64,000 nucleotides of DNA, from assembly GCA_050250895.1 (NCBI GenBank), contig JBFWNU010000001.1, forward strand, positions 3,392,139 to 3,456,138, given 5' to 3'. The position numbers and the translations under genes are program-made. The stretch's first letter is position 1. Each line of letters opens with the position of its first letter. Source of the stretch: Vulcanimicrobiota bacterium (GTDB lineage Bacteria > Vulcanimicrobiota > Xenobia > Xenobiales > JADMJV01). The notes below the pieces were generated by a model. The model saw only the letters and a program-made list of their open reading frames with translations, did not search any database and was not told the DNA's origin. Below are positions 11,514 through 24,616 of the stretch, one piece after another.

Positions 11514-11864
11514 ATGTGGACACTCAAGCAGAGGGCGATGGCCTGCTCGTTTTGCGGGCACGACGAGAAGACCGTAGCCAAGCTGATCGCCGGCCCCCCG
11601 GGTATCTTTATTTGTGGCGGCTGCGTCGGATTGTGCCAGCAGGTGCTCAGGGGCGACGCCACTCCGGATTTCTCCCGGCTCGACCAACTTTCTGAACTCG
11701 AACTGTTGGCGTCGCTCAAGGCGACCCAGGATTGCGTAGCCGCCGTCGAGGGGATGCTGGCCGAACGGGTCGCGCAACTGCGTCTGCGGGGAGTAGCCTG
11801 GCAAGAGATCGGCCAGGCTTTGGGAATTTCGCGCCAGGCCGCCTGGGAACGATTTCGAGTTTAA
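11514..11864 (+). CDS. ClpX C4-type zinc-finger protein with C-terminal HTH
   Basis: CSFCG...KLIAGP..FIC..CV.LC; WQEIGQALGISRQAAWERF. Confidence 0.85.
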   Translation: MWTLKQRAMACSFCGHDEKTVAKLIAGPPGIFICGGCVGLCQQVLRGDATPDFSRLDQLSELELLASLKATQDCVAAVEGMLAERVAQLRLRGVAWQEIGQALGISRQAAWERFRV

Positions 11865-12085: not shown

Positions 12086-12766
12086 GTGAGCAACATCGAC
12101 ATTCATCTCAAGATCGACCGCCACCGGTCGGGTAACACTCGCATCCACGGCCGCGTGGGGGCCGACCAGCACGACGTCAACGTCTGGAAAGGTCCACAAC
12201 CTGGCGATGCCTACATCGAGGGACGCCAGAACGGGCAGCCCACCACGCTGCGCATCAACGGTGCCTTTTCGGACAGTGGCCAGGCCATTTTCGGCCGGGT
12301 GGCCGGAGTGCCGTTCAAAGGCAACTGGGCTCAGCAAGAGAGCGACGGCGACGCCCGGCTCGACCTGAACAAAGCCAATCTGACCATCGACAATGATCCC
12401 GCTGCCGGGACCACCGAGTCAAAAGGGACCGCTGTCAAGAGCAGCGGCAAAGTGGTCAACGCCGAAGGCGACGAAGAATTGACCCTTTTGGCTGACGGCC
12501 GCCGTATCAATCTTAGCGTGGACCGACAGCCGGGCGGCAACATCGAACTGCGCGGCCGCAGTGGAGACGGAAATTTTCGTGTCACCATGCGCCGCCACGG
12601 CCGCGAAGGCGACCTTCAGGTCGACGGTAGCTTGCCCGAGAACCTGGCTTTGCTACCCGTCATGTGGGAACTCTACGGCGACGACTCGGTCGAACCGCCG
12701 GCCAAGCCCCTGACCATGGGGGCGGCGGCAACCTTGAGCGCGTTCTGGGACACGCACCTGCGTTAG
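12086..12766 (+). CDS. Hypothetical beta-rich protein
   Basis: 226-aa ORF with typical codon usage; TAGCCT -10 element 6 nt before GTG. Confidence 0.7.
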   Translation: MSNIDIHLKIDRHRSGNTRIHGRVGADQHDVNVWKGPQPGDAYIEGRQNGQPTTLRINGAFSDSGQAIFGRVAGVPFKGNWAQQESDGDARLDLNKANLTIDNDPAAGTTESKGTAVKSSGKVVNAEGDEELTLLADGRRINLSVDRQPGGNIELRGRSGDGNFRVTMRRHGREGDLQVDGSLPENLALLPVMWELYGDDSVEPPAKPLTMGAAATLSAFWDTHLR

Positions 12767-14280
12767 CGCGGCGGGGGAGTGCCCACCAGCGACGGGTCCC
12801 AGAAATCGCCCGACTCATAGATGTGGCGCACCTGGCAGTAGATGAGCAGCGATTTGCTCACCGCCTCGGAGGCGGGCGTGCCTCGCCAGCGCAGACTCTG
12901 CTCTGTTAGCCGGCGCTCGCCATCACCTCGTTTGCGTAGCCGGTCCAAGAGCTGCAAAGCTACGGTCGACACTCCGGCTTCGGGACGGCAAGCTACGACC
13001 GGAGCGGGCCGCCCCACCAGCAGGCGCGCCATGGCTTCCAGCCGGCGCCCGTAGTTGTCGGGAGCATACAGATTGTTGGCCAGCCATCGTTGCCCCTCGA
13101 CCAGTTGCTCGAGTGAGAAACCAGCGGGCTTGATGTTGGTCTGCCAGGGCCAGCCGAAGGCCACCTCGCGATCCTCCAGTCGCCCCTCGCGTCGGAGCCG
13201 GGCGTAAAGCGGGGTGCCCATCGGGGCCACCAGGCTAGAAAGAGTGAAAAGTGGCACGGGCGACTCCTGGGCGAAGGCAAATTGCCGCTCGAAAATGCTG
13301 GGGTCGTCGTTGTCAAAGCCGACCATCATTCCGGCGTGGACCAGAATTCCGTGCTCGAGAAATCGGCTGATGTCGGCGATCAAATCCCTCCCGACGTTCT
13401 GTCGTTTGCCGGTTTCTCGAAGGCTCGCCTCGTTAGGCGTTTCGACTCCGATGAAGACTTCACTCAGACCGGCCGAAGCCGCCAGTTCGAGCAGTTGGGG
13501 ATCGCGGGCAGCGTCGATCGAGGCCTGAGTTGCCAGCAGCACAAAGTTGCCTCGGCGCCGATTCCAGTCGCGAACCGCCTCGAGCACCTCGCGCGCCCGG
13601 GCGCGATGCACCAGGAAATTGTCGTCGCAGACGAAGACCCGCGAGGCCCCGGCTGCGAGCAGCCCGTCGAGTTCTTGCAAGATGTTGGCCACCGGCTTAA
13701 ACCGCTGACGGCGGCCCAGATACTGAATGACATCACAGAACTCACATTGGAACGGACATCCTCGCGACGTCTGAAGAGCCCCCAGCCGGGCGCGTTTGAC
13801 CAGGTCGCGGCTCCATCGCGGGATAGGACTGGTCTCTAACTCGGGTCGCGTCCCCAGATAGGTGTCCCCGGCCTGACCCCGAGCCAGATCCGAAAAGAGC
13901 CCCTCGGCGATCTCTTCGATCTCTCCGGTCACCAGCACATCGCAATGATCGCGCACCGCTTCAGGATCGAGGGTGACCCCGGGACCCCCCATAACGACGG
14001 TTAGTCCCCGTCGGCGATAGCTGTCGCCGAGGGCCCGCATGCGAGGCAACTGGCTCGACTTGCCGGTGATGGCCACCACCGAGCCGTCAAAGTCGAGAGA
14101 GGCGGGGGTAAGGCGCTCGTCGCACACATGCACCTCGAAGAACGGTTCGGCCATGCTGGTCAGGGTGGGCAACACCAGGTCGGCGATGGCGGCCAGGGGC
14201 GTGGCTCCCCACTCGCGGGCGCAGTCAAGCTCGAAGAACGAGGGGGGAGCGGACGGGTTGATCAGGTAAAGGCTAGGCAC
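12763..14280 (-). CDS. B12-binding radical SAM enzyme (HpnP/DUF4070-like putative methyltransferase)
   Basis: LYLINP N-terminus, MGGPGVT, QTSRGCPFQCEFC (CxxxCxxC), DDNF, GVET, GFDND. GTG 14280 overlaps the upstream stop. Confidence 0.9.
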   Translation of the reverse strand: MPSLYLINPSAPPSFFELDCAREWGATPLAAIADLVLPTLTSMAEPFFEVHVCDERLTPASLDFDGSVVAITGKSSQLPRMRALGDSYRRRGLTVVMGGPGVTLDPEAVRDHCDVLVTGEIEEIAEGLFSDLARGQAGDTYLGTRPELETSPIPRWSRDLVKRARLGALQTSRGCPFQCEFCDVIQYLGRRQRFKPVANILQELDGLLAAGASRVFVCDDNFLVHRARAREVLEAVRDWNRRRGNFVLLATQASIDAARDPQLLELAASAGLSEVFIGVETPNEASLRETGKRQNVGRDLIADISRFLEHGILVHAGMMVGFDNDDPSIFERQFAFAQESPVPLFTLSSLVAPMGTPLYARLRREGRLEDREVAFGWPWQTNIKPAGFSLEQLVEGQRWLANNLYAPDNYGRRLEAMARLLVGRPAPVVACRPEAGVSTVALQLLDRLRKRGDGERRLTEQSLRWRGTPASEAVSKSLLIYCQVRHIYESGDFWDPSLVGTPPPR

Positions 14281-16996
14281 CGAGAGTCCCCAATATCCTG
14301 AGATGGTGTTCCAGGGCCCTGGGGCGCAGAGACGCCACCACATCGGGCCAGCGAAGTTCCAGATTCAGGGCCAGGGAACGGGTCAGAAACTCGACTCGTT
14401 CGTCGACCGTTCCGTAGGCGGGCTGGGCCACTTCGACGAATTCGCCGCGGACCTGACCGGTGGGGGTAATCTGGGGATAGAAGGCCAGCAGTCGGGCCCC
14501 CGTTTCGACCGCCAGACGGGCGGCGCCCGAGCGAAACACGCGCCTTCGCCCACGAAATGCGACCACCACCCCGTCTTCACCGTCGTCCCAATCCACGGCC
14601 ACCACTGCCACCCCTGCGCGGGAAAGTGCTCGTCGAGCCAGGTCCAACTGAATGAGGGACTCGGCGGTGGGATGCTGGGCGGGGTAGCCGAGTTGGCGTC
14701 GGGCCATCGTGCCCAGGCGGCCCACCGCCGCCAGGGGTCGGCCGGGGAAGGCCTCAGGGCCTAGCAGCAGGGGATTGAGCCGCGAATGGACGATGGCTAA
14801 CACCGTTCCCCCTTCGGGCTCACTCCAGCCGCAGGCTGTAGTCCACTCGCTAGAGATGGCGTGGCGCCGCCATCGTGACCAGGTGTTGGCCAGCATGAAG
14901 CGGGTCAGTAGCGGGCTCCAGGGTTGCTCCACCTGGCTGACTTCGAGCAGTTGACGCAAAAGACCGAGCTCGGACCTCCACAGCCTGGTTGCCAGCCAGG
15001 GCTGGCTCAGCAGCCTGGTCAGCAGCCACGATCCCGCGGCATAAGGCAGAACCAGTCGACCCCATTGGGGTCCTCGTTCCCGCACCAGAGAAAGCCAGTT
15101 TTTGGCGGGCTTGTGTGGCCGTCCCGGGGGCGGGGCAGAAGGCGGTTGCATCGGGGGTGATTGGCCCATCACTAGAGCCACCAATCCATTCACGGTAGGT
15201 TCCTCGGCCAGGGCCTCAACAGAAATCTCCACCGCCAATTGAGCCTCGAGACTCCAGATCAGATCCACCAGCGCGAGCGAGTCCAGGCCAACCGTCAGCA
15301 GATTAGCGTCGGCGTCCAGGGATTGACCCGTCTTGCTCTCGAGAACCCTGAGCACGTAGCGGACCAGGCTCTGGGGCGTTCGCTGGCGGGGAAGAGTGGG
15401 CTGGGTCGGGCCCCACCCCCTTAGCAGGTATGCTGCTCGGCAGGCTTGACGACGGAGTTTGCCGCTGGTGGTTACCTCGAGAAAGCCGGCTTCGACCAGG
15501 CGAACATCGGCCAGAACCAACCCGTGATGGTGCCAGATGGCGTGGCGCAAGTCGGCAGCCAGGAGCTCTTGCTGGGGGGGCGACAAAGATGACCGGCGTA
15601 GCTCGCCGATGAGCACCGCCGACTCGGTCGACTCACCGCCAGCCCGGATGCCGACCACGGCGACCCGCCGCAATCGATTTCCGCCAGCCTGCAGGGCTGT
15701 GTCTTCGAGGGGAGCGGGCGGGAAGTTGCGGCCTCCGCAGATGAGCATATCATCTTGACGTCCCACCACGTAAAGTTGACCGTTCTCGCAATAGCCGCGG
15801 TCGCCGGTGTGAAGCCAGCCGTCCTCGATGACCGCCGGTCCGTCCTCGAGATAGCCCGCCATGAGCGAGTGGGACCGGACCAGAATTTCTCCTGGTTGGC
15901 CATCCGAAACCATGCCGTGTTCTCCCCAAATGGCCACCTGGTTGCCCGGCAGGGCCGGACCGCAACTGACGACATCGTGGTCGTTCACCAGCATTCCGCC
16001 GTCGCTGATGGTCACCGCACAAGTGGCCTCGGCCAGGCCGTAGCCGGCTCGAAAGGTCTCGGGACGAGCGCCGAAGGCTGCAAATTTTTGCCAGAAGTTG
16101 CGCATGGTTTCTGCTTGGATCGGCTCTCCTCCATTGGCTACGATCCTCAGACTGCTCAGGTCAAGACCCGCCAGGTCCCGGGCTCGTGACCTGGTGGTGG
16201 CGTGATGATAGCCCCAGTTCGGCATGAAGATCATGCTGCCCGAGAATTCGCTGACGGCGCGAAACAGCAGCGAGGGGTTGCGCACCCACCGGGTGGGTGG
16301 CAGGGTGACCAGACGACCCCCGACTAAAAGCGGCATCAACAGATTCACCACCAGTCCAGCGTCGTGGTACCAGGGCATCCACCCTACCGCCACGTCGTCA
16401 AGGCCGAACGGAAAGGTGCGGGCCACGCAGTCGACCTGGCTCAACAGAGCGTGGGCCGAGATGAGCACGCACTTCGAGGCGCCGCTGGTGCCGCTGGTGA
16501 ACTGCAAGAAGGCCGGCTCGGTGGCGGCTACCCTTCGGCCTTGAGCCTGCCGCTCGGGCAACCTGGCCGGGTCAAACTCGAGCACCGGGCAGGCTGCCTC
16601 AAGCTCGGCCCCGGGGGCGGCCACGACCGCCCGAATCGAGTATTTCTCCACCCGGGCAGCCAGGGTCGGCCCATAGACATCGGTGCGCCGGTATTGCGAG
16701 AGGTAGGGCAGGACAGCGGGAACCATCCCGGCGTAGAGGGCGCCCAGGAAGGCCAGGATCATGGCCAGGTCGTGCTCGCCCGCCAACAAGACGCGGCTGC
16801 CCGGCTCGAGACCGGCCGCCTCGAACCAGGCTGCGCTCCGGCGCACCCGTTGCAGCAACTGCCGATAGCTGACTTTTTCCTCGAGGTCTGGCTTGGGTAG
16901 TGACACCACTCCCCAGCTTCTGAGATCAGGCTCATCCCAGCGATCCAGAAGGTCGGCCAGGGGCGTGTCACAGTCGCCCCGAAGGCCGTGGGGCAT
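14273..16996 (-). CDS. Fatty acyl-AMP ligase-ACP-acyltransferase fusion
   Basis: LQFTSGTSG, WMPWYHDAGL, GYGLAEAT, LHTGD, TTSGKLRR (FAAL); GLDSLA (ACP Ser); C-terminal domain resembling lipid A/HtrB acyltransferases (VAFRGRRRVFRSGAARLAVETGA). Confidence 0.85.
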   Translation of the reverse strand: MPHGLRGDCDTPLADLLDRWDEPDLRSWGVVSLPKPDLEEKVSYRQLLQRVRRSAAWFEAAGLEPGSRVLLAGEHDLAMILAFLGALYAGMVPAVLPYLSQYRRTDVYGPTLAARVEKYSIRAVVAAPGAELEAACPVLEFDPARLPERQAQGRRVAATEPAFLQFTSGTSGASKCVLISAHALLSQVDCVARTFPFGLDDVAVGWMPWYHDAGLVVNLLMPLLVGGRLVTLPPTRWVRNPSLLFRAVSEFSGSMIFMPNWGYHHATTRSRARDLAGLDLSSLRIVANGGEPIQAETMRNFWQKFAAFGARPETFRAGYGLAEATCAVTISDGGMLVNDHDVVSCGPALPGNQVAIWGEHGMVSDGQPGEILVRSHSLMAGYLEDGPAVIEDGWLHTGDRGYCENGQLYVVGRQDDMLICGGRNFPPAPLEDTALQAGGNRLRRVAVVGIRAGGESTESAVLIGELRRSSLSPPQQELLAADLRHAIWHHHGLVLADVRLVEAGFLEVTTSGKLRRQACRAAYLLRGWGPTQPTLPRQRTPQSLVRYVLRVLESKTGQSLDADANLLTVGLDSLALVDLIWSLEAQLAVEISVEALAEEPTVNGLVALVMGQSPPMQPPSAPPPGRPHKPAKNWLSLVRERGPQWGRLVLPYAAGSWLLTRLLSQPWLATRLWRSELGLLRQLLEVSQVEQPWSPLLTRFMLANTWSRWRRHAISSEWTTACGWSEPEGGTVLAIVHSRLNPLLLGPEAFPGRPLAAVGRLGTMARRQLGYPAQHPTAESLIQLDLARRALSRAGVAVVAVDWDDGEDGVVVAFRGRRRVFRSGAARLAVETGARLLAFYPQITPTGQVRGEFVEVAQPAYGTVDERVEFLTRSLALNLELRWPDVVASLRPRALEHHLRILGTLGA

Positions 16997-18716
16997 GCTG
17001 GATTGCCTGGTCACCGTCTCGTCACGAGATTTTCTAGTGGGTACGATGGTGATGTTGGGATCATTTGTCCGCCACCATCCGGACTTCGTCGGGGAGCTGA
17101 TGGTGGTCCATGACGATCTCGACCCAGAGCAGCAAGAATGGTTGCAGCAACGGATTGGAAGGGCGGTCGGCTTCGTCCCTGCCGACCCTTCCCTGGTGGG
17201 TGCCACCGCTCTGTTGCGGCACCGATTGGCGCGATTTGAGCGACGTTATCGTCAGTTCTACTCATTGCAGGCAATTTCACTCGAGGGCTACCGAAAGGTA
17301 ATCTTCTGCGACAGTGACACCCTTTTCCTTGCGCCCGTCCGGGACCTCTTCCAAGAGTCGTCCGAGTTGTTGGCCTGCCGGGATCGGATGACCATCCTGG
17401 GCCAACGCCGCTGCCGTAGAACCTTCGAGCCGGCTCCGCACAATGCGTTTGAAGCGACCTTCAATGCGGGTTTCATGGTATTCGATGGCAGCCGGCTCGG
17501 GGCCCCGGTCTTCGAGTCGGCTCTACGCTGGCTACGCCCAGAAATTCTGGCTGAGGTGCCGAATCACACCGATCAGTTTGTCCTGAATCATCTTTATGAG
17601 GGACGGGTCCACTGGCTCAGCAATCGATACAATTTCTTGCTGTCGGTGGCCCAAGAGCTTTTTGGCCAGGGGGGCCTCGAGGCGTCGCAGGTGCGAGTGG
17701 TTCACTTTGCCGGCAACGACGCGACTCCCTGGACCGACTATCAAGCGACACCCCCAACTCGGGTCTTCTATGAGGCCTGGCACCAACTGGCCGACGAGCT
17801 GCTTCGGGTCGGCTTGTCGGCGTATTCCAACCCGCAAGGCCCGGGTGGGAACTACCTGGCCCACGGCCTGGTCTGGCGGTCTGAGGTGCCCCTCGAGGCG
17901 CCCCGGACCGGCAGGCCGCCTGACGTAAGAATTCGTTGGGGAGCGACGCCTGAACCTGATGCCAGTTGGAAGCGACTTCCTTATGGCTGGGCCAAACCCG
18001 ACCAGTTTCTGGCCATCACCCCTGGGGGCGGACGCCTGTGGGTCTCTCGGGGCCAAGAGATTTGTCTCGACCAGCAGTCAGAGGACCCGCAGCTATTCTG
18101 GCTCTATTTGGTGGGCCTGGCTACCGGGGCTCTGTTGCTCGAGCGGGGTGAGTTGGTCCTGCATGGAGATGCCGTGGTGCTCGACGACCGGGCCGTGGTT
18201 TTAGGCGGACCGTCAGGTTGCGGCAAGTCCACGCTGGCCTGTCAGTTGGGCGGCCGTCTGCTTTGCGACGACGTGACGGTGGTGCGCAACAGCCCCGCCG
18301 GTCTGACCGTGTTGGCGGGCCTGGGGCCGCTTAAACCTCGGCTGCTTGGCCTGGCCAAGAACGGCCATCCGGCGCAAGAGGTCTTGAGCGGCCGGCCTGC
18401 CCGAGCGGCTATCCCCATCGAGCCGGCAGGTTCCCAGTTTCCGCTGGCGGCAGTCTATCTCCTCGACCAGCCCCCGGCCAGGATCCGGGGAGCGCGCCTG
18501 GCGGCCCTGGCCAAGACGCTGTTCTATCGGCCCGAACTGGCCGCCGCCCTGGGGCGCGCTCGGGAGAACTTCGACCACTTGCAGACTCTAGCCAGGACCC
18601 GGGTGGTGGGGCTCGAGTCCGCCGACCCGGCCGAGCAATCCAGGCGTATTCTTGCCGACCTGGAAGGAAAGATTTTCTGTCCCCCCGAGGAAGAGAGCGG
18701 CCATGGCCTGGTTTGA
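16995..18716 (+). CDS. GT8 glycosyltransferase fused to an HPr-kinase-like (lasso-peptide kinase type) domain
   Basis: GT8 motifs CDSD, FNAGFMV, DQFVLN, YNF, HFAG; kinase motifs LHGDAV, GPSGCGKST, CDD. Confidence 0.85.
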   Translation: MLDCLVTVSSRDFLVGTMVMLGSFVRHHPDFVGELMVVHDDLDPEQQEWLQQRIGRAVGFVPADPSLVGATALLRHRLARFERRYRQFYSLQAISLEGYRKVIFCDSDTLFLAPVRDLFQESSELLACRDRMTILGQRRCRRTFEPAPHNAFEATFNAGFMVFDGSRLGAPVFESALRWLRPEILAEVPNHTDQFVLNHLYEGRVHWLSNRYNFLLSVAQELFGQGGLEASQVRVVHFAGNDATPWTDYQATPPTRVFYEAWHQLADELLRVGLSAYSNPQGPGGNYLAHGLVWRSEVPLEAPRTGRPPDVRIRWGATPEPDASWKRLPYGWAKPDQFLAITPGGGRLWVSRGQEICLDQQSEDPQLFWLYLVGLATGALLLERGELVLHGDAVVLDDRAVVLGGPSGCGKSTLACQLGGRLLCDDVTVVRNSPAGLTVLAGLGPLKPRLLGLAKNGHPAQEVLSGRPARAAIPIEPAGSQFPLAAVYLLDQPPARIRGARLAALAKTLFYRPELAAALGRARENFDHLQTLARTRVVGLESADPAEQSRRILADLEGKIFCPPEEESGHGLV

Positions 18717-19269
18717 CGGTCACGTGCGTGACCTGGGTGGGATTGACGAGCAACTGTTAGCACCGTTGCGCCAGCAAGTTTTGGAACGGGCCGACTTCTG
18801 GGCCGGAGCCGACCGCCTAAAGCCCAACCATTTTGCCTGTTTCGAGGGGGCGGCCGAGCATATCGTCTTTCGCTATCCCCAGAGCCCGTCCGACCACCGG
18901 CAGTCGGGCGACTTTCCGTTCTATCGCAAGTGGGCGCCTTTGATCGAACCCATCATCGAAGCCGCCACGGTCAGTTACGGGTTTGCGCGGGGACAGGCCT
19001 CGCGCATCATGCTGGCCAAACTTCGGGCCGGCGGCGAACTGGGGGTGCACGTTGACGCCGCCCCGTCGGCCGAGGTCCCGCACAAGATCCATGTCCCGCT
19101 GGTGACCAAGCCCGAAGTGGTCTTTATCGCCGAAGACGAGGCTTATCACCTGTCCGCTGGGCGGGCCTGGGAGGTCAATAATCGGGTTCTGCATGGTGGG
19201 CGCAACCCTTCGACCATCGACCGGATTCACTTGATTTTTGACTACTTTGACGCCCATGACTTGCACTGA
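18703..19269 (+). CDS. Aspartyl/asparaginyl beta-hydroxylase-like 2OG-Fe(II) oxygenase (copy 1)
   Basis: RIMLAKL, HVD, HKIHVPLVT, EVNNRVLH, DRIHLIFD. Confidence 0.85.
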   Translation: MAWFDGHVRDLGGIDEQLLAPLRQQVLERADFWAGADRLKPNHFACFEGAAEHIVFRYPQSPSDHRQSGDFPFYRKWAPLIEPIIEAATVSYGFARGQASRIMLAKLRAGGELGVHVDAAPSAEVPHKIHVPLVTKPEVVFIAEDEAYHLSAGRAWEVNNRVLHGGRNPSTIDRIHLIFDYFDAHDLH

Positions 19270-20215
19270 GGCCACTCGGTTCAAAGCTTGTCCCGGCATG
19301 ACCGCCTGGTTGCTCGAGCGACAGGTCAGCCTGCTGGTCACCGGCTATGCCAGCGCCCGCCTCTTTCTGGTTGGCAGCCAGCAGGGCCGATTGAGCTTCC
19401 AGGAGCGGGACTTCGTGCCGTGTATGGGGGTGGCTGCCCATCGAGGCCTGATTTACCTCGGCACCCGTACCAGTCTCTGGAGCTTCGACCCCAAGCCCGG
19501 ATACCTCAAGCCGGTTCGCTGCTGGGTGACCGACAACGTGCGCATTCACGATGTCGGGGTCGACCGGGTTGGAACTCCCCTGCTGGTCAACACCCTGCAC
19601 AACTGTCTGGTGACTCCACGCTCGCGGGGTATCGGCTTTGAGGTGGTCTGGAAGCCCGACTTCATCAGTTCGACCGAACAGGGTGACCGCTGTCACCTCA
19701 ACGGCCTGGCCATGCACGCCGGCCGGGCGTGTTTTGTCACCCTGGTGGCCCGCAGCGACGAGGTCGACGGCTGGCGCCAAAGCAAAGTAGGTGGCGGTTG
19801 TGTGGTCGAAGTGTCGAGCCAGCGGGTCGTGCTCGACGGCCTGACCATGCCCCACTCGCCCAGGCTTTACCGTGATCGTCTGTGGGTGCACGACTCTGGC
19901 AGCGGATGGTTGGGCTGGGTCGACCAGACTCGAGGACGATTCGTTCGCCACGCCTTTGTTCCGGGCTTTCCCAGAGGACTCTGCTTCTGCGGAGACTACG
20001 CCCTGGTTGGAGTTTCGACCATCCGTTACTTTGGTCAGACCGAGTTTCCCATCGAGGCAGAGTTGACCAGTCGGGAACTCGACGATTTTTGCGGGGTCTG
20101 TGTGATCTGTCTCGAGACGGGAGCCACGGTGGGGACGCTCTCGTTCGAGGGTCTGGCCGAGGTGTATGACCTGGAAGTGATCCCAGCCCCGCACCTCGAG
20201 TTGAGGTGGACTTGA
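19256..20215 (+). CDS. TIGR03032 (DUF4915) family protein
   Basis: IHDV, VNTLHNCL, WKPDFIS, DRCHLNGLAM, MPHSPR, PGFPRGL. Confidence 0.85.
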   Translation: MTCTEATRFKACPGMTAWLLERQVSLLVTGYASARLFLVGSQQGRLSFQERDFVPCMGVAAHRGLIYLGTRTSLWSFDPKPGYLKPVRCWVTDNVRIHDVGVDRVGTPLLVNTLHNCLVTPRSRGIGFEVVWKPDFISSTEQGDRCHLNGLAMHAGRACFVTLVARSDEVDGWRQSKVGGGCVVEVSSQRVVLDGLTMPHSPRLYRDRLWVHDSGSGWLGWVDQTRGRFVRHAFVPGFPRGLCFCGDYALVGVSTIRYFGQTEFPIEAELTSRELDDFCGVCVICLETGATVGTLSFEGLAEVYDLEVIPAPHLELRWT

Positions 20216-20760
20216 GCTGGTTCGAAGGCAAGATCCGTGAGCTGGGTCCGGTCAACTGTACCGAGCTGACGGCGATGGTCGAACGGACCTCGAAGGCGGT
20301 CTGGACAGCCCAGAGTTTTCGGCAAGATCATTATGCGGTGCACCACCAGACCCGCTCGCTCATTTTTCGCTTTCTGACCGGCGATGGGCTCGAGGGTGTA
20401 GACCAGCCCCCCTGGCTGGCCTGGAAGAGCCTGGTCGAGCCGGTCATCGCCCAGGCTGTTGAAAGCTACGGCTACCGGCAGGGGCGATGCGCCCGGATCA
20501 TGCTGGCCAATCTGCCGGCAGGCTCGTCGATTTCACCCCATCGCGATGTCGGCGAGTCGTTCGCCCGCACCCATCGGCTGCATGTGCCTTTGCTCACCCA
20601 TCCCGAGGTGTGCTTCGAACTCGACGGCGAGCCCTTTCACCTGGCCCAGGGACATGCTTACGAAATCAACAATCTGCTCTCGCATGGGGTGACCAACCCG
20701 GGCCCAGGAGACCGCGTCCACCTCATCTTCGACTATTACGAGGCCTATGAACAGACCTAA
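20206..20760 (+). CDS. Aspartyl/asparaginyl beta-hydroxylase-like oxygenase (copy 2)
   Basis: Paralogue of 18703..19269: RIMLANL, HRD, HRLHVPLLT, EINNLLSH, DRVHLIFD. Confidence 0.85.
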   Translation: MDLSWFEGKIRELGPVNCTELTAMVERTSKAVWTAQSFRQDHYAVHHQTRSLIFRFLTGDGLEGVDQPPWLAWKSLVEPVIAQAVESYGYRQGRCARIMLANLPAGSSISPHRDVGESFARTHRLHVPLLTHPEVCFELDGEPFHLAQGHAYEINNLLSHGVTNPGPGDRVHLIFDYYEAYEQT

Positions 20761-21382
20761 GGTTTTTGGAGTAGGCTTGCCCAAGACCGGCACCACTTCT
20801 CTGGGGCGCGCTCTCGAGTGGATGGGCTATCGGGTCTGCGGCGGGCTCGGTCAAAGGGTGCGCGCCCGGGTCGAGAGCGGCGACCCCATCGAGGCCGTGG
20901 TGCCAGAGTTGGTCGAGCGCGAAGTCGAGCGCCATGACGCTTTTCAAGATAATCCCTGGCCGGTGCTTTTTGAAGAGATGGCCCGACGGTTTCCCGATAG
21001 TCTTTTCGTCTTGACCCTGCGTCCCGAGCAGGAATGGCTGGCCAGCTTCGTTCGCCATTTCGGCTCACGGCACTCTCCCTTGCGCGAGTGGATCTTCGGG
21101 GCGGGAGCGCCGGAGGGTAACGAACAGGCCTATCTTGATTTCTTCCGAGTTCACTATCGTCGGGTCCTGGAGCATTTTGCCGACCAATCCCATCGGCTGT
21201 TGGTACTTCGCTTATGCGAGGGAGAAGGCTGGCAACCCTTGTGCCAGTTTCTGGGACAACCCCAGCCGGACCAGCCCTTTCCCCACCTCAACAGCGCTCG
21301 GGCCAGGGCCCAGCGCCAACTGGATCAGGTGGTCGACGAGCTACGCCGGCAGCGACGTCACCAGTCCGAGTCGTTTTCGTAG
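20747..21382 (+). CDS. Sulfotransferase family protein (Sulfotransfer_4-like)
   Basis: KVFGVGLPKTGTTSL, LTLRP..WLAS, GWQPLCQFLG..P..PFPHLN. Confidence 0.85.
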   Translation: MNRPKVFGVGLPKTGTTSLGRALEWMGYRVCGGLGQRVRARVESGDPIEAVVPELVEREVERHDAFQDNPWPVLFEEMARRFPDSLFVLTLRPEQEWLASFVRHFGSRHSPLREWIFGAGAPEGNEQAYLDFFRVHYRRVLEHFADQSHRLLVLRLCEGEGWQPLCQFLGQPQPDQPFPHLNSARARAQRQLDQVVDELRRQRRHQSESFS

Positions 21383-22131
21383 CCGAGTTCGAGCAGCAGG
21401 TCTCCAAAGCGTCTTTTGAACTCGCCTTTGATCTGGCTATTGAAGTGGTCACGCCAGTCTCCGGCGACTCCGCGCCGGTAGTGGTGATGGACGTCGACCT
21501 GACCGCGCGGGCGTCCCTGGCTCTGGGCCTCAAAGCCGTATCGGTCGAGGGCTTGCTCGAGCAATTCCTGGCAGTCGAGGCGCAAGAACGCAAAAGCCTG
21601 GTGCAAGACCGGTCGAGGCGACTCGATCAGGTCTTCAAAACGGAGTCTCAACAAGCGGTCGGACCACCCGCCACACTCGCGCAACTGCTCGAGGTAGACC
21701 GAGCTATAGTCAAGCTCGAGCAGCAGGCCTTGCTCCATGGGGAGGCTCTCGAGGCTTTGTCGGTGCTCGGCCTGGTAGGCGTGCCTCACCGGGTGGGAAT
21801 AGCGGTGGGAATAGTAGCACGAGACCAGCATGTCCCGCGGGTCTCGGATGAATTCACAGCCGCGGTAGTCGACTCTTTCCAATCGTTCGATCACAGCTGC
21901 GTGAGCGTTGCGGTGCAAGACCACATCCGAGCTGTTCAGGGCGCTTTCCCAACGGTGCAGCATTTGCAGCCAGGCGGCGATCGATTGGGGATGGCGGTGG
22001 GCGCGGGCGGGCAAGTGCTTGGGGCGATGCTCCTGAGTTAGGTCGAGGTCCAGGCCACGCGCTACGAACTTGACCACCTCGCGAACAAAGGTCGAGGCGC
22101 AACGGTGATGACACAGAAAGGCCCTGACCAT
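21358..22131 (-). CDS. Sulfotransferase domain protein (Sulfotransfer_1-like)
   Basis: HHRCAST, IRDPRDMLVSCYYS, RFEDL, RRGVAGDWRDHF. Confidence 0.85.
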   Translation of the reverse strand: MVRAFLCHHRCASTFVREVVKFVARGLDLDLTQEHRPKHLPARAHRHPQSIAAWLQMLHRWESALNSSDVVLHRNAHAAVIERLERVDYRGCEFIRDPRDMLVSCYYSHRYSHPVRHAYQAEHRQSLESLPMEQGLLLELDYSSVYLEQLRECGGWSDRLLRLRFEDLIESPRPVLHQAFAFLRLDCQELLEQALDRYGFEAQSQGRPRGQVDVHHHYRRGVAGDWRDHFNSQIKGEFKRRFGDLLLELGYENDSDW

Positions 22132-22132
22132 C

Positions 22133-23767
22133 TCACGCCTTGCCCGCCTCGACCCACTCCAAGAAGCGTCCCACCAGAATGGTCCGGACCAGGACCTTCA
22201 GGGCGAGATGGTAGGCCCCCGCCGAGAAATCGTCGTCGGCCGGAAGATGATGGAACAGGGGGCGAACCTGATCCCAGTCGATGAAGTGGTTGCAGAGTTG
22301 GCTGTTAGTCAGTCGCTCGAGTTCGCCGCGAAGCGCGGGCGCACAGCCGCGCAAACGGGCTTGCCAGCCAACGTCTTGCATGCCCACGGTGGACCGGTCG
22401 AGGACCAGGTCGGGCACGATCCCTCGCAGGCTGTCGCGCACGGCCCGGCGCTTTTGTCCCTCGCGAGCAAAGAACTCGCGGGGGGCCTGCAGGCAGAACT
22501 CCACCATTCGAAGATCGGTGGTGGGGTCGAGTTCTTCCAGTCCAAAGCGCCCTCGCCAGTAGTTATGCAAAGCACCCACTTTGCCCCGCAGATAGATGCG
22601 CAAGAAACGACCGCGGGGGCTCTGGTCGATGGCTCGCAATCGCTTCTCGAGTTCCAGTTCTCGGGCTCGTTCCGGCCGCAGGGCGAGGTCGGCCTTGCGC
22701 ACCGCGCTGCCCCGGCGAAGCCCAAGCGAGGTGGCCAGACGTTTCTTCCAGTTGGTCTTGGGCAGGCCCGAGGAGGAGAAGAGCAGATTGCCTCCCCGAC
22801 CTCCGATGAGAACGGTCAAGCCAGTCTCGACGGCCCGGGCCGCGATCTTTTCTCCCCAGCCTCCGAAGAGATGACGGGCGGGCTCGCCGGTGAGAGCGTG
22901 CCACTGGTCGTCGATGGCGGCCAGCGGATCACCGGGATCGCGTACATACTCGATCTTCAGGTTGGGATATTGCACGAGCACAGCGTCGATGAAGGGCTCG
23001 TCGCGATAGCTACGCCCAGGCGGCGCGGGCGCCTGACAATCTTCGGGTGGCAAGTAGGTGAAGCAGGGAAACTTTCGCTCGGGCCTTTGCCGGGCCGCCA
23101 GGCACGCTACCGAAGTCGAGTCCAACCCTCCGCTCAGGTGAAAGCCCACCTGTGTGTCCTGGGTCAGACAGTCCTCGACGGCGCAGGTGAAGAGGTCTCG
23201 AAACCGAGACTCGAGTTCGGGCAATTCCCCTCGACGCAGAGGACGATGCCAACGAAAGTCCGCCGGAGACCAATAGCTCTGGATTCGCGTCTGTTGTCCG
23301 TCAAAAAGCAAGAGATGACCCGGGGGAAGCTGGCGCAGGTCTTTAAACATAGTGCGGCTGGGCTCGGCTGTGCGCAAACCGCCTCCCACCAGCGCTGCGG
23401 CCACCGCCAACGGGTCGACCTCGGTCCCCACGCCGGGCAATTGCCGTAACCGGCGGATGTGGTTCGACAGCCAGAGCGGGTCGCCCGAACGATAGTAGAG
23501 GGTTCGGCCCCCCAGCGGTCCTCGGATGGCCACCAGCCTTCGTTCCTCGGTGTTCCAAAAGACGGCGCAAAAGTCATGGGCGACCCGGCTGCATTCGGCC
23601 GCCCCTTTGCTCAAGTAGGCCGCCAACAAGTGCTGCACGCCGCTGGCATCGACGGGAAGGTCAGACCGAAAGCGGGCGTCGGCCACGCCGAGCCAGGGCC
23701 CCACGGCTTCGCCGGACCCGCCGCCGACTGCGACCCGCCCATCGACTTCAAGGCAGAAATCAGCCAA
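22133..23767 (-). CDS. Asparagine synthetase-like lasso peptide cyclase (C protein)
   Basis: LPPGH, HLSGGLDSTSV, GGRGGN, DPTTDLRMVEFCL. Starts 3 nt after the precursor A1 stop. Confidence 0.85.
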   Translation of the reverse strand: MADFCLEVDGRVAVGGGSGEAVGPWLGVADARFRSDLPVDASGVQHLLAAYLSKGAAECSRVAHDFCAVFWNTEERRLVAIRGPLGGRTLYYRSGDPLWLSNHIRRLRQLPGVGTEVDPLAVAAALVGGGLRTAEPSRTMFKDLRQLPPGHLLLFDGQQTRIQSYWSPADFRWHRPLRRGELPELESRFRDLFTCAVEDCLTQDTQVGFHLSGGLDSTSVACLAARQRPERKFPCFTYLPPEDCQAPAPPGRSYRDEPFIDAVLVQYPNLKIEYVRDPGDPLAAIDDQWHALTGEPARHLFGGWGEKIAARAVETGLTVLIGGRGGNLLFSSSGLPKTNWKKRLATSLGLRRGSAVRKADLALRPERARELELEKRLRAIDQSPRGRFLRIYLRGKVGALHNYWRGRFGLEELDPTTDLRMVEFCLQAPREFFAREGQKRRAVRDSLRGIVPDLVLDRSTVGMQDVGWQARLRGCAPALRGELERLTNSQLCNHFIDWDQVRPLFHHLPADDDFSAGAYHLALKVLVRTILVGRFLEWVEAGKA

Positions 23768-23770
23768 TGG

Positions 23771-23911
23771 TCACGACAAGGCGTAAGAAGGAGCAGTCCC
23801 CCCGCCGTCGCCCGGATTGGTATCCATGTTGGTAGCCAGGGTGTTGGAGATATCGAGGCGCGTGAGAACGGGGGCGTTCCACGGTCTGCGCAGGCTGGGC
23901 TCATTACTCAT
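23771..23911 (-). CDS. Lasso peptide precursor A1 (46 aa): MSNEPSLRRPWNAPVLTRLDISNTL-ATNMDTNPGDGGGTAPSYALS
   Basis: Hand-translated. Leader motif WxxPxLxxLxIxxT; C-terminal Ser; lies between the RRE and cyclase genes. Confidence 0.85.
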   Translation of the reverse strand: MSNEPSLRRPWNAPVLTRLDISNTLATNMDTNPGDGGGTAPSYALS

Positions 23912-23985
23912 TGCCAGCCGTTTCGACGGCCTCAATCGGGGCCCTGCTGAAGGATTAGCGCGACCGATGCCAAAAGCGACAATCG

Positions 23986-24252
23986 ATGCTCTCGCGCAGT
24001 AACAACATCGTCGCTAGCGAACTTGATGGGGACCTCGTCATGATGAGCGTGGATACCGGTAATTACTATTCTCTCGACGAGGTGGGAGCGGCCATCTGGG
24101 AGCTGCTCGACCAGCCCCGTCCGACCGGTGAACTCGTAGAAGGGTTAGTCAAACGCTTCGAGGTCGAGCGCGAGACCTGTCTGGAAGATATCAAGCCCTT
24201 TTTGGCCGAACTGTTAGCCGAGGGGATCTTGATCGAGACCGCTCAAGATTGA
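23986..24252 (+). CDS. PqqD-family RiPP recognition element (lasso B1)
   Basis: ELDGDLVMMSVDTGNYYSLDEVGAAIWELL...FEVERETCLEDI..FL..L...GI. Confidence 0.92.
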   Translation: MLSRSNNIVASELDGDLVMMSVDTGNYYSLDEVGAAIWELLDQPRPTGELVEGLVKRFEVERETCLEDIKPFLAELLAEGILIETAQD

Positions 24253-24383
24253 TAACTGCCCATTCCGCCCCCGCCATCTGGCGGGTTGCCAGCGAGGGTG
24301 GTAGAGAGCGTGTTGGCGATCTCGAGCCGGGTTAGCCGGGGTGCCCGCCAGGCACGGCGCGGCATTTCTTGTATGTCTGACAT
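24243..24383 (-). CDS. Lasso peptide precursor A2 (46 aa): MSDIQEMPRRAWRAPRLTRLEIANTL-STTLAGNPPDGGGGMGSYQS
   Basis: Hand-translated. Paralogous to A1 (W.AP.LTRL.I.NTL.T....NP.DGGG...SY..S). Confidence 0.85.
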   Translation of the reverse strand: MSDIQEMPRRAWRAPRLTRLEIANTLSTTLAGNPPDGGGGMGSYQS

Positions 24384-24424: not shown

Positions 24425-24616
24425 TTAGAAGGCGAAGGCGCTGGTCAGATTGGCCACCAGATCGTTGGCCTCGTCGTCGTCCTCGAAGGCCTCGGCGCCC
24501 AGGTTGATGTGGTCGCAAGGGGCGACCGTCCCCGCCACTTCGGGAGCCTGGCCGGCAAAACTCCAGAGTTGATTCTGGTTCTGGAGTTGACTGGTGGAGA
24601 TGTAAGTGTCTTTCAT
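24425..24616 (-). CDS. Small acidic hypothetical protein (63 aa)
   Basis: GAGGT RBS; DHINLG motif; acidic tail. Confidence 0.6.
   Translation of the reverse strand: MKDTYISTSQLQNQNQLWSFAGQAPEVAGTVAPCDHINLGAEAFEDDDEANDLVANLTSAFAF

Follow-up and report, generated by a model that had tools for sequence, protein, structure and literature searches.

Structurally characterised lasso peptides have macrolactam rings of 7–9 residues, with 10 tolerated only in engineered fusilassin (PMC13352647). Among the described kinase-type representatives, uncharacterised sulfotransferase genes have been noted beside paeninodin-type clusters (PMC8498205), and the borders of paeninodin-like clusters are blurred by the polysaccharide genes that frequently surround them (PMC13381572). 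Pseudomycoidin, isolated as a branched cycle that has no bulky residue in its tail, could be produced in E. coli in the absence of its leader peptidase; the branched cycle was obtained when kinase and transferase were left out of the production (PMC6993621). Acylated lassos exist (albusnodin, GNAT-acylated lassos and Tyr-acylated Snou-LP; PMC13352647, PMC11912497), and a further class of RiPP (ribosomally synthesised peptides altered after translation), the linear polyphosphorylated peptides (LPP), is defined by a missing cyclase together with a signal-peptidase-like protease, an NTP transferase and an ABC transporter (PMC13381572). We analysed a locus of a Vulcanimicrobiota bacterium (positions 12763..24383 of a 64,000-nucleotide stretch, the window, from contig JBFWNU010000001.1; genome G000, 9.5 Mb, main contig C1 3.95 Mb), which is best explained, with a probability of about 0.55, as a mosaic kinase-type (paeninodin-like) lasso locus whose products would be phospho-, glyco- and probably hydroxy- and sulfo-macrolactams, matured by a distant leader peptidase (B2). 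Four components make up the locus: the lasso core, phospho/glyco genes typical of the family, and two portable modules, one of hydroxylases and sulfotransferases and the other for acylation. About half of the parts demonstrably travel without lasso peptide genes; each chemical step given below is a prediction from genes, motifs, folds and co-occurrence.

The two 46-residue precursors with WxxPxLxxLxIxxT leaders that had been predicted, here A1 and A2, were borne out, and all twelve originally listed genes were present at the limits given for them (open reading frame (ORF) calls with Pfam and NCBIfam scans; Table 1). The strict leader motif occurred in short ORFs twice in the 9.5-Mb genome, both times at the locus, and not once in three shuffles of the 3.95-Mb contig. 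A2 is 61% identical to A1 over 36 residues; across 30 aligned codons 19 residues are identical, nine of them through synonymous codons, and differences at the three codon positions (9/6/15) are most numerous at the third. A1 and A2 are genuine, non-random precursors. Both carry the lasso leader pattern ([YW]xxPx[LVI] with a penultimate Thr) and end in Ser; A1 matched NF033524 (paeninodin family) at E=0.00096 and 18.8 bits, below the cut-off of 27, and A2 had no NCBIfam match.

Two registers can be read in A1 (Trp11, acceptor Asp35, C-terminus Tyr43-x-x-Ser46) and in A2 (Trp12, acceptor Asp36, C-terminus Tyr44-x-Ser46). With the Thr at W+13 (Thr24 in A1, Thr25 in A2; Thr-Leu, then Ala or Ser), the cores run from Ala26 to Ser46 and from Ser27 to Ser46, positions 7–9 hold no Asp or Glu, and the sole shared acceptor is Asp10. 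With the Thr at W+16, also kept in both (Thr27 and Thr28), the cores are Met29–Ser46 and Leu30–Ser46, residue 1 is Met or Leu and the acceptor is Asp7; this spacing was also found in the precursor of a sister cluster in the same genome and in locus L176. Another precursor of this genome, at locus L026, shows the same pattern as A1 and A2 with Thr at W+13, yet has its acceptor at 9. The motif Asn-Pro-x-Asp-Gly-Gly-Gly is in register in both precursors although their surroundings diverge. For comparison, precursors were picked by eye from a pattern scan at 25 of 35 loci encoding a family 8 glycosyltransferase (GT8) (ten gave none, and one duplicate was dropped): a Tyr near the C-terminus was present in 24/25 and a C-terminal Ser in 22/25, as in A1 and A2, and 22/25 had an acid at 7–9 under some Thr. 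The remaining three (L146, L149 and L171) have their first acid, Glu, at position 10 without an alternative Thr and are further candidates for 10-residue macrolactams. Ring size had not been raised as a problem in the original prediction. We lean towards a 10-residue ring closed on the conserved Asp as the probable outcome, with a 7-residue ring from a shifted cleavage site as a more tentative second choice; nothing relevant to a natural 10-residue lasso ring was found in the literature searched, which covered few subscription journals. The tails of A1 and A2 are Gly-rich with one Tyr, and the product may be threaded only through bulky C-terminal decorations, or may be a branched cycle. Given the branched cycle isolated for pseudomycoidin without its kinase and transferase, a decorated C-terminus acting as a stopper is, by analogy, a reasonable idea.

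The discrete RiPP recognition element (RRE) scored 82.3 bits against NF033536, over the cut-off of 80, and its best PDB matches were lasso RREs. The best NCBIfam match of the cyclase was NF033535, at 122.6 bits and below the cut-off of 525; its motifs are intact (SGGLDS at 212, GxxGN at 322), and in our tree it groups among lasso cyclases (the ‘GN’ clade) on a long branch. An Asn in place of the usual Asp was considered as a mark of a degenerate cyclase and rejected, since Asn is the norm in this clade. The best homolog was 36% identical, with matches of 25–36% in 60 relatives and three weak plasmid matches, and a single-protein scan of genome contigs found no cyclase relatives. The paeninodin-like lasso core with a C-terminal Ser and an HPr-type kinase stood as originally predicted. 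Peptides that are never cyclised, whether linear decorated peptides resembling LPP or a decaying remnant with a cyclase unable to use these cores, would fit the missing acceptor at 7–9 in the canonical register, the lack of a local protease, the long branch and a cyclase 60–110 residues shorter than its relatives, and linear kinase/RRE RiPPs do exist (PMC13381572). We consider this very unlikely, as the ATP-binding and GxxGN motifs are intact, A1 lies 3 nt upstream of the cyclase gene, Asn-Pro-x-Asp-Gly-Gly-Gly is kept in both copies, 3/25 relatives have their first acid at 10, and no stop or frameshift was seen in the twelve ORFs.

The window contains no B2; a weak B2-like match at the edge of the locus (E=0.7, three stops) was rejected as noise. 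Two B2 genes are encoded elsewhere in the genome, one an orphan (L001; G000:C1:933382-933912) and one in a lasso cluster of its own (C9:232865-233293). The orphan overlaps the end of an operon that reads by eye as type II secretion/pilus, and had no close ortholog in 22 relatives (best 43%). Where a GT8 locus lacked B2, a B2 was present elsewhere in 5/5 genomes examined versus 1/14 controls, so maturation in trans looks usual in the GT8 lasso subfamily. The genome also contains at least three other RRE/kinase/cyclase clusters, one about 60 kb downstream. The cluster on C9 (L025:3737-17836) contains, besides its B2, a 93-residue precursor, two kinases, an ABC transporter-like ORF, a sulfotransferase and two PRMT/PrmA-like methyltransferases. 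The lasso-type precursor at L026 (L026:7926-8075; G000:C1:2163925-2164074) has a Cys-rich tail ending Tyr-Ser-Ala-Ser and lies between a kinase/sulfotransferase/RRE/cyclase set and ORFs reading as YcaO and SagB-like enzymes; the peptide could be a hybrid of lasso and azole type.

In the GT8-kinase fusion, the GT8 domain carries a DxD motif at 106, and the best PDB match of its family profile was glycogenin, the enzyme of Tyr glucosylation. The kinase domain matched HprK_rel_A at E=1e-6, below the cut-off, with His390, the Walker A motif at 405 and the DD at 425 intact and HGD where four paralogs have HAS or QAS; no informative solved structure matched it. None of 7996 scored candidates was a full-length fused homolog, and GT8 was found in 0/45 relatives. 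Scanning genome contigs with 25 close GT8 homologs gave the 35 loci mentioned above, which encode a cyclase (31), sulfotransferase (33), kinase (24), aspartyl/asparaginyl beta-hydroxylase-like enzyme (AspH; 18), RRE (18), B2 (11), nucleotidyltransferase (6), adenylation enzyme (2) and TIGR03032 protein (1, lying 5.5 kb off in another operon). In several phyla, GT8, kinase, AspH and sulfotransferase genes of these classes accompany lasso cyclase genes; the classes belong to a widespread, uncharacterised lasso subfamily. Of the multiply decorated product that had been proposed, this co-occurrence makes the phospho, glyco, sulfo and hydroxy parts plausible; that every neighbouring gene acts on the peptide was not upheld. 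Phospho-glycosylation by the pseudomycoidin route also fell away, as it needs a nucleotidyltransferase not found in the locus: no NTP_transf_5 (PsmN-like) gene was present in the twelve genes or the flanks scanned, and one was present in the C9 cluster.

The sister cluster (G000:C1:3474407-3483408) resembles the locus in its lasso core without B2, a GT8 35% identical to that of the window, kinases, sulfotransferases and a Tyr-x-x-Ser precursor, and differs in its standalone GT8, a cyclase of another clade, other sulfotransferase types, a canonical acceptor and the lack of AspH, TIGR03032 or an acyl module. In Puniceicoccaceae K14 (L174:7818-15172), an operon of fatty acyl-AMP ligase (FAAL), P450, carbamoyltransferase and MBOAT genes converges on a lasso cluster that encodes a GT8-sulfotransferase fusion.

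The motifs of both hydroxylases are intact (AspH1: HxD at 116, distal His 164, Arg 174; AspH2: HxD at 112, His 160, Arg 170), the two being 37% identical, and the genome encodes an APS kinase (for PAPS). The TIGR03032 protein scored 293.7 bits, over the cut-off of 251.5, a level reached in 3/201 genomes of the phylum, G000 included; the family was not mentioned in the literature searched. As a lasso marker TIGR03032 was rejected: of 595 metagenome loci, the best 80 were scanned by tblastn and with HMMs from the GT8 loci, and no cyclase, RRE, kinase, B2, GT8 or AspH was found in any of them, 28 of these being 12 kb or longer. The long homologs were mostly fused to TPR-GT41 (17/50 scanned), GNAT or GT2, and among 149 homologs there were four AspH-sulfotransferase-TIGR03032 fusions and two nucleotidyltransferase fusions. 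From the AspH-sulfotransferase-TIGR03032 fusions, we infer that this set may be a portable module that hydroxylates and then sulfates. The contention that all tailoring genes act on the peptide was not supported. Occurrence without a lasso core, which the original prediction had named as counting against it, was seen for TIGR03032 (0/80 of these best loci), for an AspH-sulfotransferase-TIGR03032 unit beside a surface protein, for the radical SAM enzyme (its ortholog adjoins FAAL and MBOAT) and for most relatives of the acyltransferase (0/20).

These occurrences bear on the possibility that a minimal RiPP lies in a surface-modification island, in which only the RRE, cyclase, kinase and GT8 act on A1 and A2, AspH, TIGR03032 and sulfotransferases modify surface proteins or glycans, and the acyl genes with the radical SAM enzyme make an acylated glycan or lipid. 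The 0/80 result and the TPR-GT41 fusions fit such an island, as do AspH-sulfotransferase with TIGR03032 beside an IPTL-CTERM surface protein, TIGR03032 beside a large surface protein and sulfotransferase-AspH-sulfotransferase beside a TonB receptor, the radical SAM-FAAL-MBOAT unit of genome G010 (see below) and the frequent embedding of paeninodin-like clusters in capsule loci (PMC13381572). Three observations make it unlikely: AspH is present in 18/35 GT8 lasso loci; AspH1, AspH2, TIGR03032 and ST4 are translationally coupled downstream of the GT8-kinase, with ST1 1 nt downstream of the cyclase gene; and no large surface protein or polysaccharide export gene was seen among the ORFs at 8–30 kb (by eye; 17 ORFs domain-scanned). 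The coupling to the GT8-kinase and the Asn/Asp residues in the cores make A1 and A2 the most likely local substrates of the hydroxylase-sulfotransferase module.

In the tridomain protein, the best NCBIfam match of the first domain was fatty acyl-AMP ligase, below the cut-off, and the acyl carrier protein (ACP) has its Ser at 573. The C-terminal acyltransferase (AT) domain scored E=0.017 and 14.8 bits against PF03279 (gathering score 22.3) and 0.93–0.94 as LpxL-like in Atlas. Its family profile matched PatA, a mycobacterial PIM acyltransferase that acylates a mannose, at E=1.4e-32, and an alignment-based AF2 model (pLDDT 86.8) matched PatA in Foldseek at E=1.9e-9. Its catalytic positions are His737, the His being present in 22/23 aligned rows, and Asp802; the acid of HX4D/E is absent, as in the nearest relatives. 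The PatA/LpxM-type fold is secure; the acceptor is not, as the profile includes general LpxL-like rows. Homologs and fold thus confirmed the predicted acyltransferase domain despite the weak PF03279 match.

Three other genomes have acyl modules within lasso clusters or next to them (L167, L061 and G538), each with adenylation and an LpxL/PatA-type AT, which supports in part the earlier suggestion of an acylated product. On the other side, three further searches scored 89 places in 852 genomes, and of 20 AT places drawn from their upper ranks (3/20 under 6 kb) none had lasso genes; among these 20 are four adenylation-AT fusions, a polyketide synthase terminus and a polysaccharide locus. A scan of the Sphingomonas order (401 genomes) gave one non-seed match, the FAAL-ACP-AT fusion of G538, which has B2, cyclase, GT2, kinase and RRE genes 4.2 kb away. 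The cyclase of G538 falls in the clade of the window cyclase (support 0.904); its AT is the top-scoring relative of the window domain (71 bits, versus 70 for a non-lasso one) and passes PF03279 at 33.7 bits. Among 121 genomes of the locus's own phylum there were two non-seed AT places. A kinase, two RREs, glycosyltransferases and a small ORF resembling a carrier adjoin the first; the second has no RiPP gene. The AT tree placed the window domain in a supported clade of ten rich in carrier-linked acyltransferases, three of them lasso-adjacent. The L061 enzyme falls outside it, and with the lasso-adjacent ATs not united in a single clade, a lasso-specific acyltransferase clade was rejected. The acyl module is a general off-loading acyltransferase recruited repeatedly to the vicinity of lasso clusters, and acylation of the peptide by FAAL-ACP-AT, through a sugar carried on it, is possible though doubtful.

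The widest proposal is that all ten enzymes serve the peptides, giving a lipidated, glycosylated, phosphorylated, sulfated and hydroxylated macrolactam with the radical SAM enzyme methylating the acyl chain or backbone. It draws on the abutting genes and their uniform GC content at third codon positions (GC3, 0.64–0.76), on the LpxL-type AT with an adenylation enzyme inside co-directional lasso operons at L167 and L061, and on the G538 fusion. As L167 and L061 were found because they are located in lasso loci, they are not independent tests, and no precursor was found at G538; with the 0/20 further AT loci, the scattered lasso-adjacent ATs, and radical SAM at 0/35 and TIGR03032 at 1/35 of the GT8 loci, we regard this proposal as distinctly improbable. 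Similarly improbable is a specific combination, a natural 10-residue macrolactam, exceeding in size every structurally characterised lasso ring and kept threaded by phospho-Ser and glyco- or sulfo-Tyr stoppers, with its glycan acylated by the FAAL-ACP-PatA-type tridomain protein using a radical SAM-modified fatty acid.

The radical SAM enzyme probably starts at a GTG at 14280, overlapping the FAAL stop by 8 nt, and has its CxxxCxxC at 196; it was below all NCBIfam cut-offs. Its closest relative (49–50%, G010) is back to back with a FAAL, upstream of an MBOAT, and no lasso markers were found in 34 kb around it. Peptide methylation, part of the original prediction, is thus unlikely, and a role as peptide methylase was rejected, as the enzyme tracks FAAL; it most likely acts on the acyl chain, and a methylating activity would be suggested by the B12 domain.

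Several of the loci compared deserve description in their own right. In Sphingomonas canadensis (L167:482-5478), an LpxL-type acyltransferase lies inside a co-directional lasso operon, followed, as read by eye, by an acyl-CoA dehydrogenase, adenylation enzyme, carrier protein and flavin halogenase-like gene, and further on by AspH, sulfotransferase, RRE, precursor, cyclase and GT8; as the strain is in culture, this candidate for a lasso peptide's acyl unit, bound to a carrier and perhaps halogenated, offers a better experimental handle on acylation than the window locus. L061 (L061:4065-15568; G008:C92) is a complete lasso cluster with NTP transferase, kinase, RRE, B2, cyclase and a 37-residue precursor, followed co-directionally by an acyltransferase, AMP ligase, PNPOx-P450 fusion and ATP-grasp. 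The G538 region (L188:14319-17255 and L189:7406-12071; G538:C1) also holds carbamoyltransferase, SxtJ-like and SGNH genes and is flanked by transposase-like ORFs. L184 (L184:1-10400; G008:C136) contains an NTP-transferase-like ORF, a kinase, two RREs, several glycosyltransferases, a small carrier-like ORF and an acyltransferase, adjoins flagellin-like and export-ATPase-like genes and has no cyclase; a YxPP motif is present in its 40-residue ORF (361-483), which leaves hardly any core.

Returning to the mosaic lasso locus, a number of observations weigh against it. The canonical register leaves positions 7–9 without Asp or Glu; no B2, exporter or nucleotidyltransferase gene was found in the locus; two divergent gene starts, those of FAAL and GT8-kinase, overlap; and the DNA searched held no close ortholog of the locus as a whole, so the synteny of the arrangement was not comparable and each module was examined separately. 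The GT8 census was made with an alignment that contained the sister GT8, not the window GT8, and each of the 35 loci matches the sister better; several of them share a genome or belong to kindred genomes, and their cyclases are mostly of the other clade. The Sulfotransfer_4 type occurred in 0/35 of them and the Sulfotransfer_1 type was clear in 1/35. To the same side belong the two plasmid-borne units without lasso genes, AspH-sulfotransferase-TIGR03032 beside the IPTL-CTERM surface protein and sulfotransferase-AspH-sulfotransferase beside the TonB receptor.

In the pathway that we nonetheless favour, the RRE would bind the WxxP leaders of A1 and A2, and the kinase half would phosphorylate the C-terminal Ser of the linear precursor, as PadeK does. 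The GT8 half would add a hexose to the C-terminal Tyr-x-(x)-Ser segment, at the Tyr, the Ser or the phosphate. The two Fe/2OG enzymes would probably beta-hydroxylate ring Asn/Asp residues, and at least one sulfotransferase might then sulfate the new hydroxyl, the Tyr or the sugar, the fusions with TIGR03032 suggesting that hydroxylation is paired with sulfation. The leader would be removed by a B2 encoded elsewhere, most likely the orphan, and the cyclase would join the new N-terminus to the conserved Asp. FAAL-ACP-AT and the radical SAM enzyme, separately recruited, would load a fatty acid and modify it on the carrier, with PatA-style transfer of the acyl group to a hydroxyl, probably on a sugar.

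Table 1. Features of the lasso locus, with positions in the 64,000-nucleotide window
Feature	Position	Strand	Supporting match or remark
B12-binding radical SAM enzyme, DUF4070 type	12763..14343	-	Pfam Radical_SAM, DUF4070, weak B12-binding
FAAL-ACP-acyltransferase tridomain, 907 aa	14273..16996	-	AMP-binding 39-383, PP-binding 547-609
Glycogenin-like GT8 fused to HPr-type (PadeK-like) kinase	16995..18716	+	PF01501 4-248, HprK_rel_A
Asp/Asn beta-hydroxylase-like Fe/2OG enzyme 1 (AspH1)	18703..19269	+	PF05118
TIGR03032/DUF4915 protein, no assigned function	19256..20215	+	TIGR03032 over cut-off
Asp/Asn beta-hydroxylase-like Fe/2OG enzyme 2 (AspH2)	20206..20760	+	PF05118
Sulfotransferase ST4, Sulfotransfer_4 type	20747..21382	+	PF17784 E=1.5e-33
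Sulfotransferase ST1, Sulfotransfer_1 type	21358..22131	-	PF00685 E=3.9e-12
Lasso macrolactam synthetase (C), ‘GN’ clade, with a shortened N-terminal domain	22133..23767	-	
Precursor A1, 46 aa	23771..23911	-	leader motif
Discrete RRE (B1)	23986..24252	+	NF033536 lasso_PqqD_Bac
Precursor A2, 46 aa	24243..24383	-	leader motif
orf63, 63-aa acidic (Asp/Glu-rich) ORF upstream of A2	24425..24616	-	outside the originally predicted limits

Intergenic gaps range from -71 to +74 nt, so that the contiguity described originally stands as far as overlapping or abutting ends are concerned; the strands alternate, giving five transcription units rather than one operon: radical SAM with FAAL (-); GT8-kinase, AspH1, TIGR03032, AspH2 and ST4 (+); ST1, cyclase and A1 (-); RRE (+); and A2 with orf63 (-). 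FAAL and GT8-kinase start back to back: the palindrome CATG at 16994-16997 is common to their divergent first ATGs, which therefore overlap and leave no room for an intergenic promoter. Shine-Dalgarno sequences are present in few genes of the locus, and a promoter and terminator scan of it gave matches at chance level only. The ORF upstream of A2, orf63, has a gene-like GC3 of 0.78 and a 41-nt gap to A2; it had no Pfam or NCBIfam family and no usable look-alike, was not found in five relatives, and may represent another substrate or else an orphan. Of the genes flanking the locus, the left one is kept in 4/5 relatives, with unrelated neighbours, and a right one was found in 0/5, so that no empty insertion site was definable. 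A small protein encoded at 11514-11864 (+) of the window joins a ClpX C4 zinc finger to a helix-turn-helix.

Neither a sulfated lasso peptide nor a GT8-type RiPP glycosyltransferase was found in the literature searched; clusters of this type may already stand in genome-mining lists, such as the genome tables of PMC13381572. What the analysis suggests as new is a PatA/LpxM-fold AT on FAAL-ACP near a lasso core and a shared Asp that points to a 10- or shifted 7-residue ring. The locus offers two short gene-encoded substrates with soluble enzymes, a first handle on TIGR03032, and a means to address whether nature makes 10-residue macrolactams, to which 3/25 relatives also point, what role the sulfotransferases long noted beside paeninodin-like clusters have, and whether the PatA-like domain lipidates a peptide glycan. 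If the acylated, stoppered 10-residue ring were true, the product would be a lipo-glyco-sulfo-phospho RiPP, with a new RiPP lipidation route recurring in unrelated phyla; if only the RRE, cyclase, kinase and GT8 act on the peptides, the locus is one more member of the uncharacterised, widespread subfamily.

With paeninodin, ThcoK and SyanK (PMC8498205, PMC9266682) the locus shares a WxxP leader, a discrete RRE, an HPr-type kinase and a C-terminal Ser; unlike them, it has no B2 or exporter, fuses the kinase to GT8, places the acceptor at 10 or a shifted 7 and adds two hydroxylases, TIGR03032 and an acyl module. It is predicted to work in the manner of a paeninodin or pseudomycoidin cluster; the lack of a local B2 and the failed NF033524 cut-off, with an acceptor position that can be read in two ways, set it apart from plain paeninodin or pseudomycoidin members. 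Pseudomycoidin (PMC6993621) has the phospho-Ser and hexoses at the C-terminus that are predicted here, whereas its glycosylation needs the nucleotidyltransferase PsmN, in place of which the window locus has the glycogenin-like GT8. For the davasins (PMC11912497), a cluster-encoded glycosyltransferase, IgtG, likewise O-glycosylates a lasso peptide, iteratively; IgtG is a GT2-deacetylase from Streptomyces that acts on the mature lasso, whereas the window GT8 shares a protein with a kinase, and known relatives of that kinase have the linear precursor as substrate. The hydroxylases can be likened, in their predicted reaction, to CanE of canucin A (PMC9266682), which catalyses RRE-aided Fe/2OG beta-hydroxylation of a precursor Asp; CanE acts on a C-terminal Asp, whereas the window locus has two PF05118 enzymes and Asn/Asp in the ring. 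Unlike the LPP, the locus has a cyclase, and a protease, NTP transferase and ABC transporter were not among the genes scanned. In acylated lassos, the described Lys acylations use acetyltransferases or GNATs, and no report of a FAAL-ACP-PatA/LpxM-type module on a RiPP was found in the literature searched, with the Snou-LP enzyme left uncompared. The AT resembles PatA and LpxM in its fold, the His and the downstream acidic residue, and differs from them in its identity of 17–19% (TM about 0.53) and in being fused behind FAAL-ACP.

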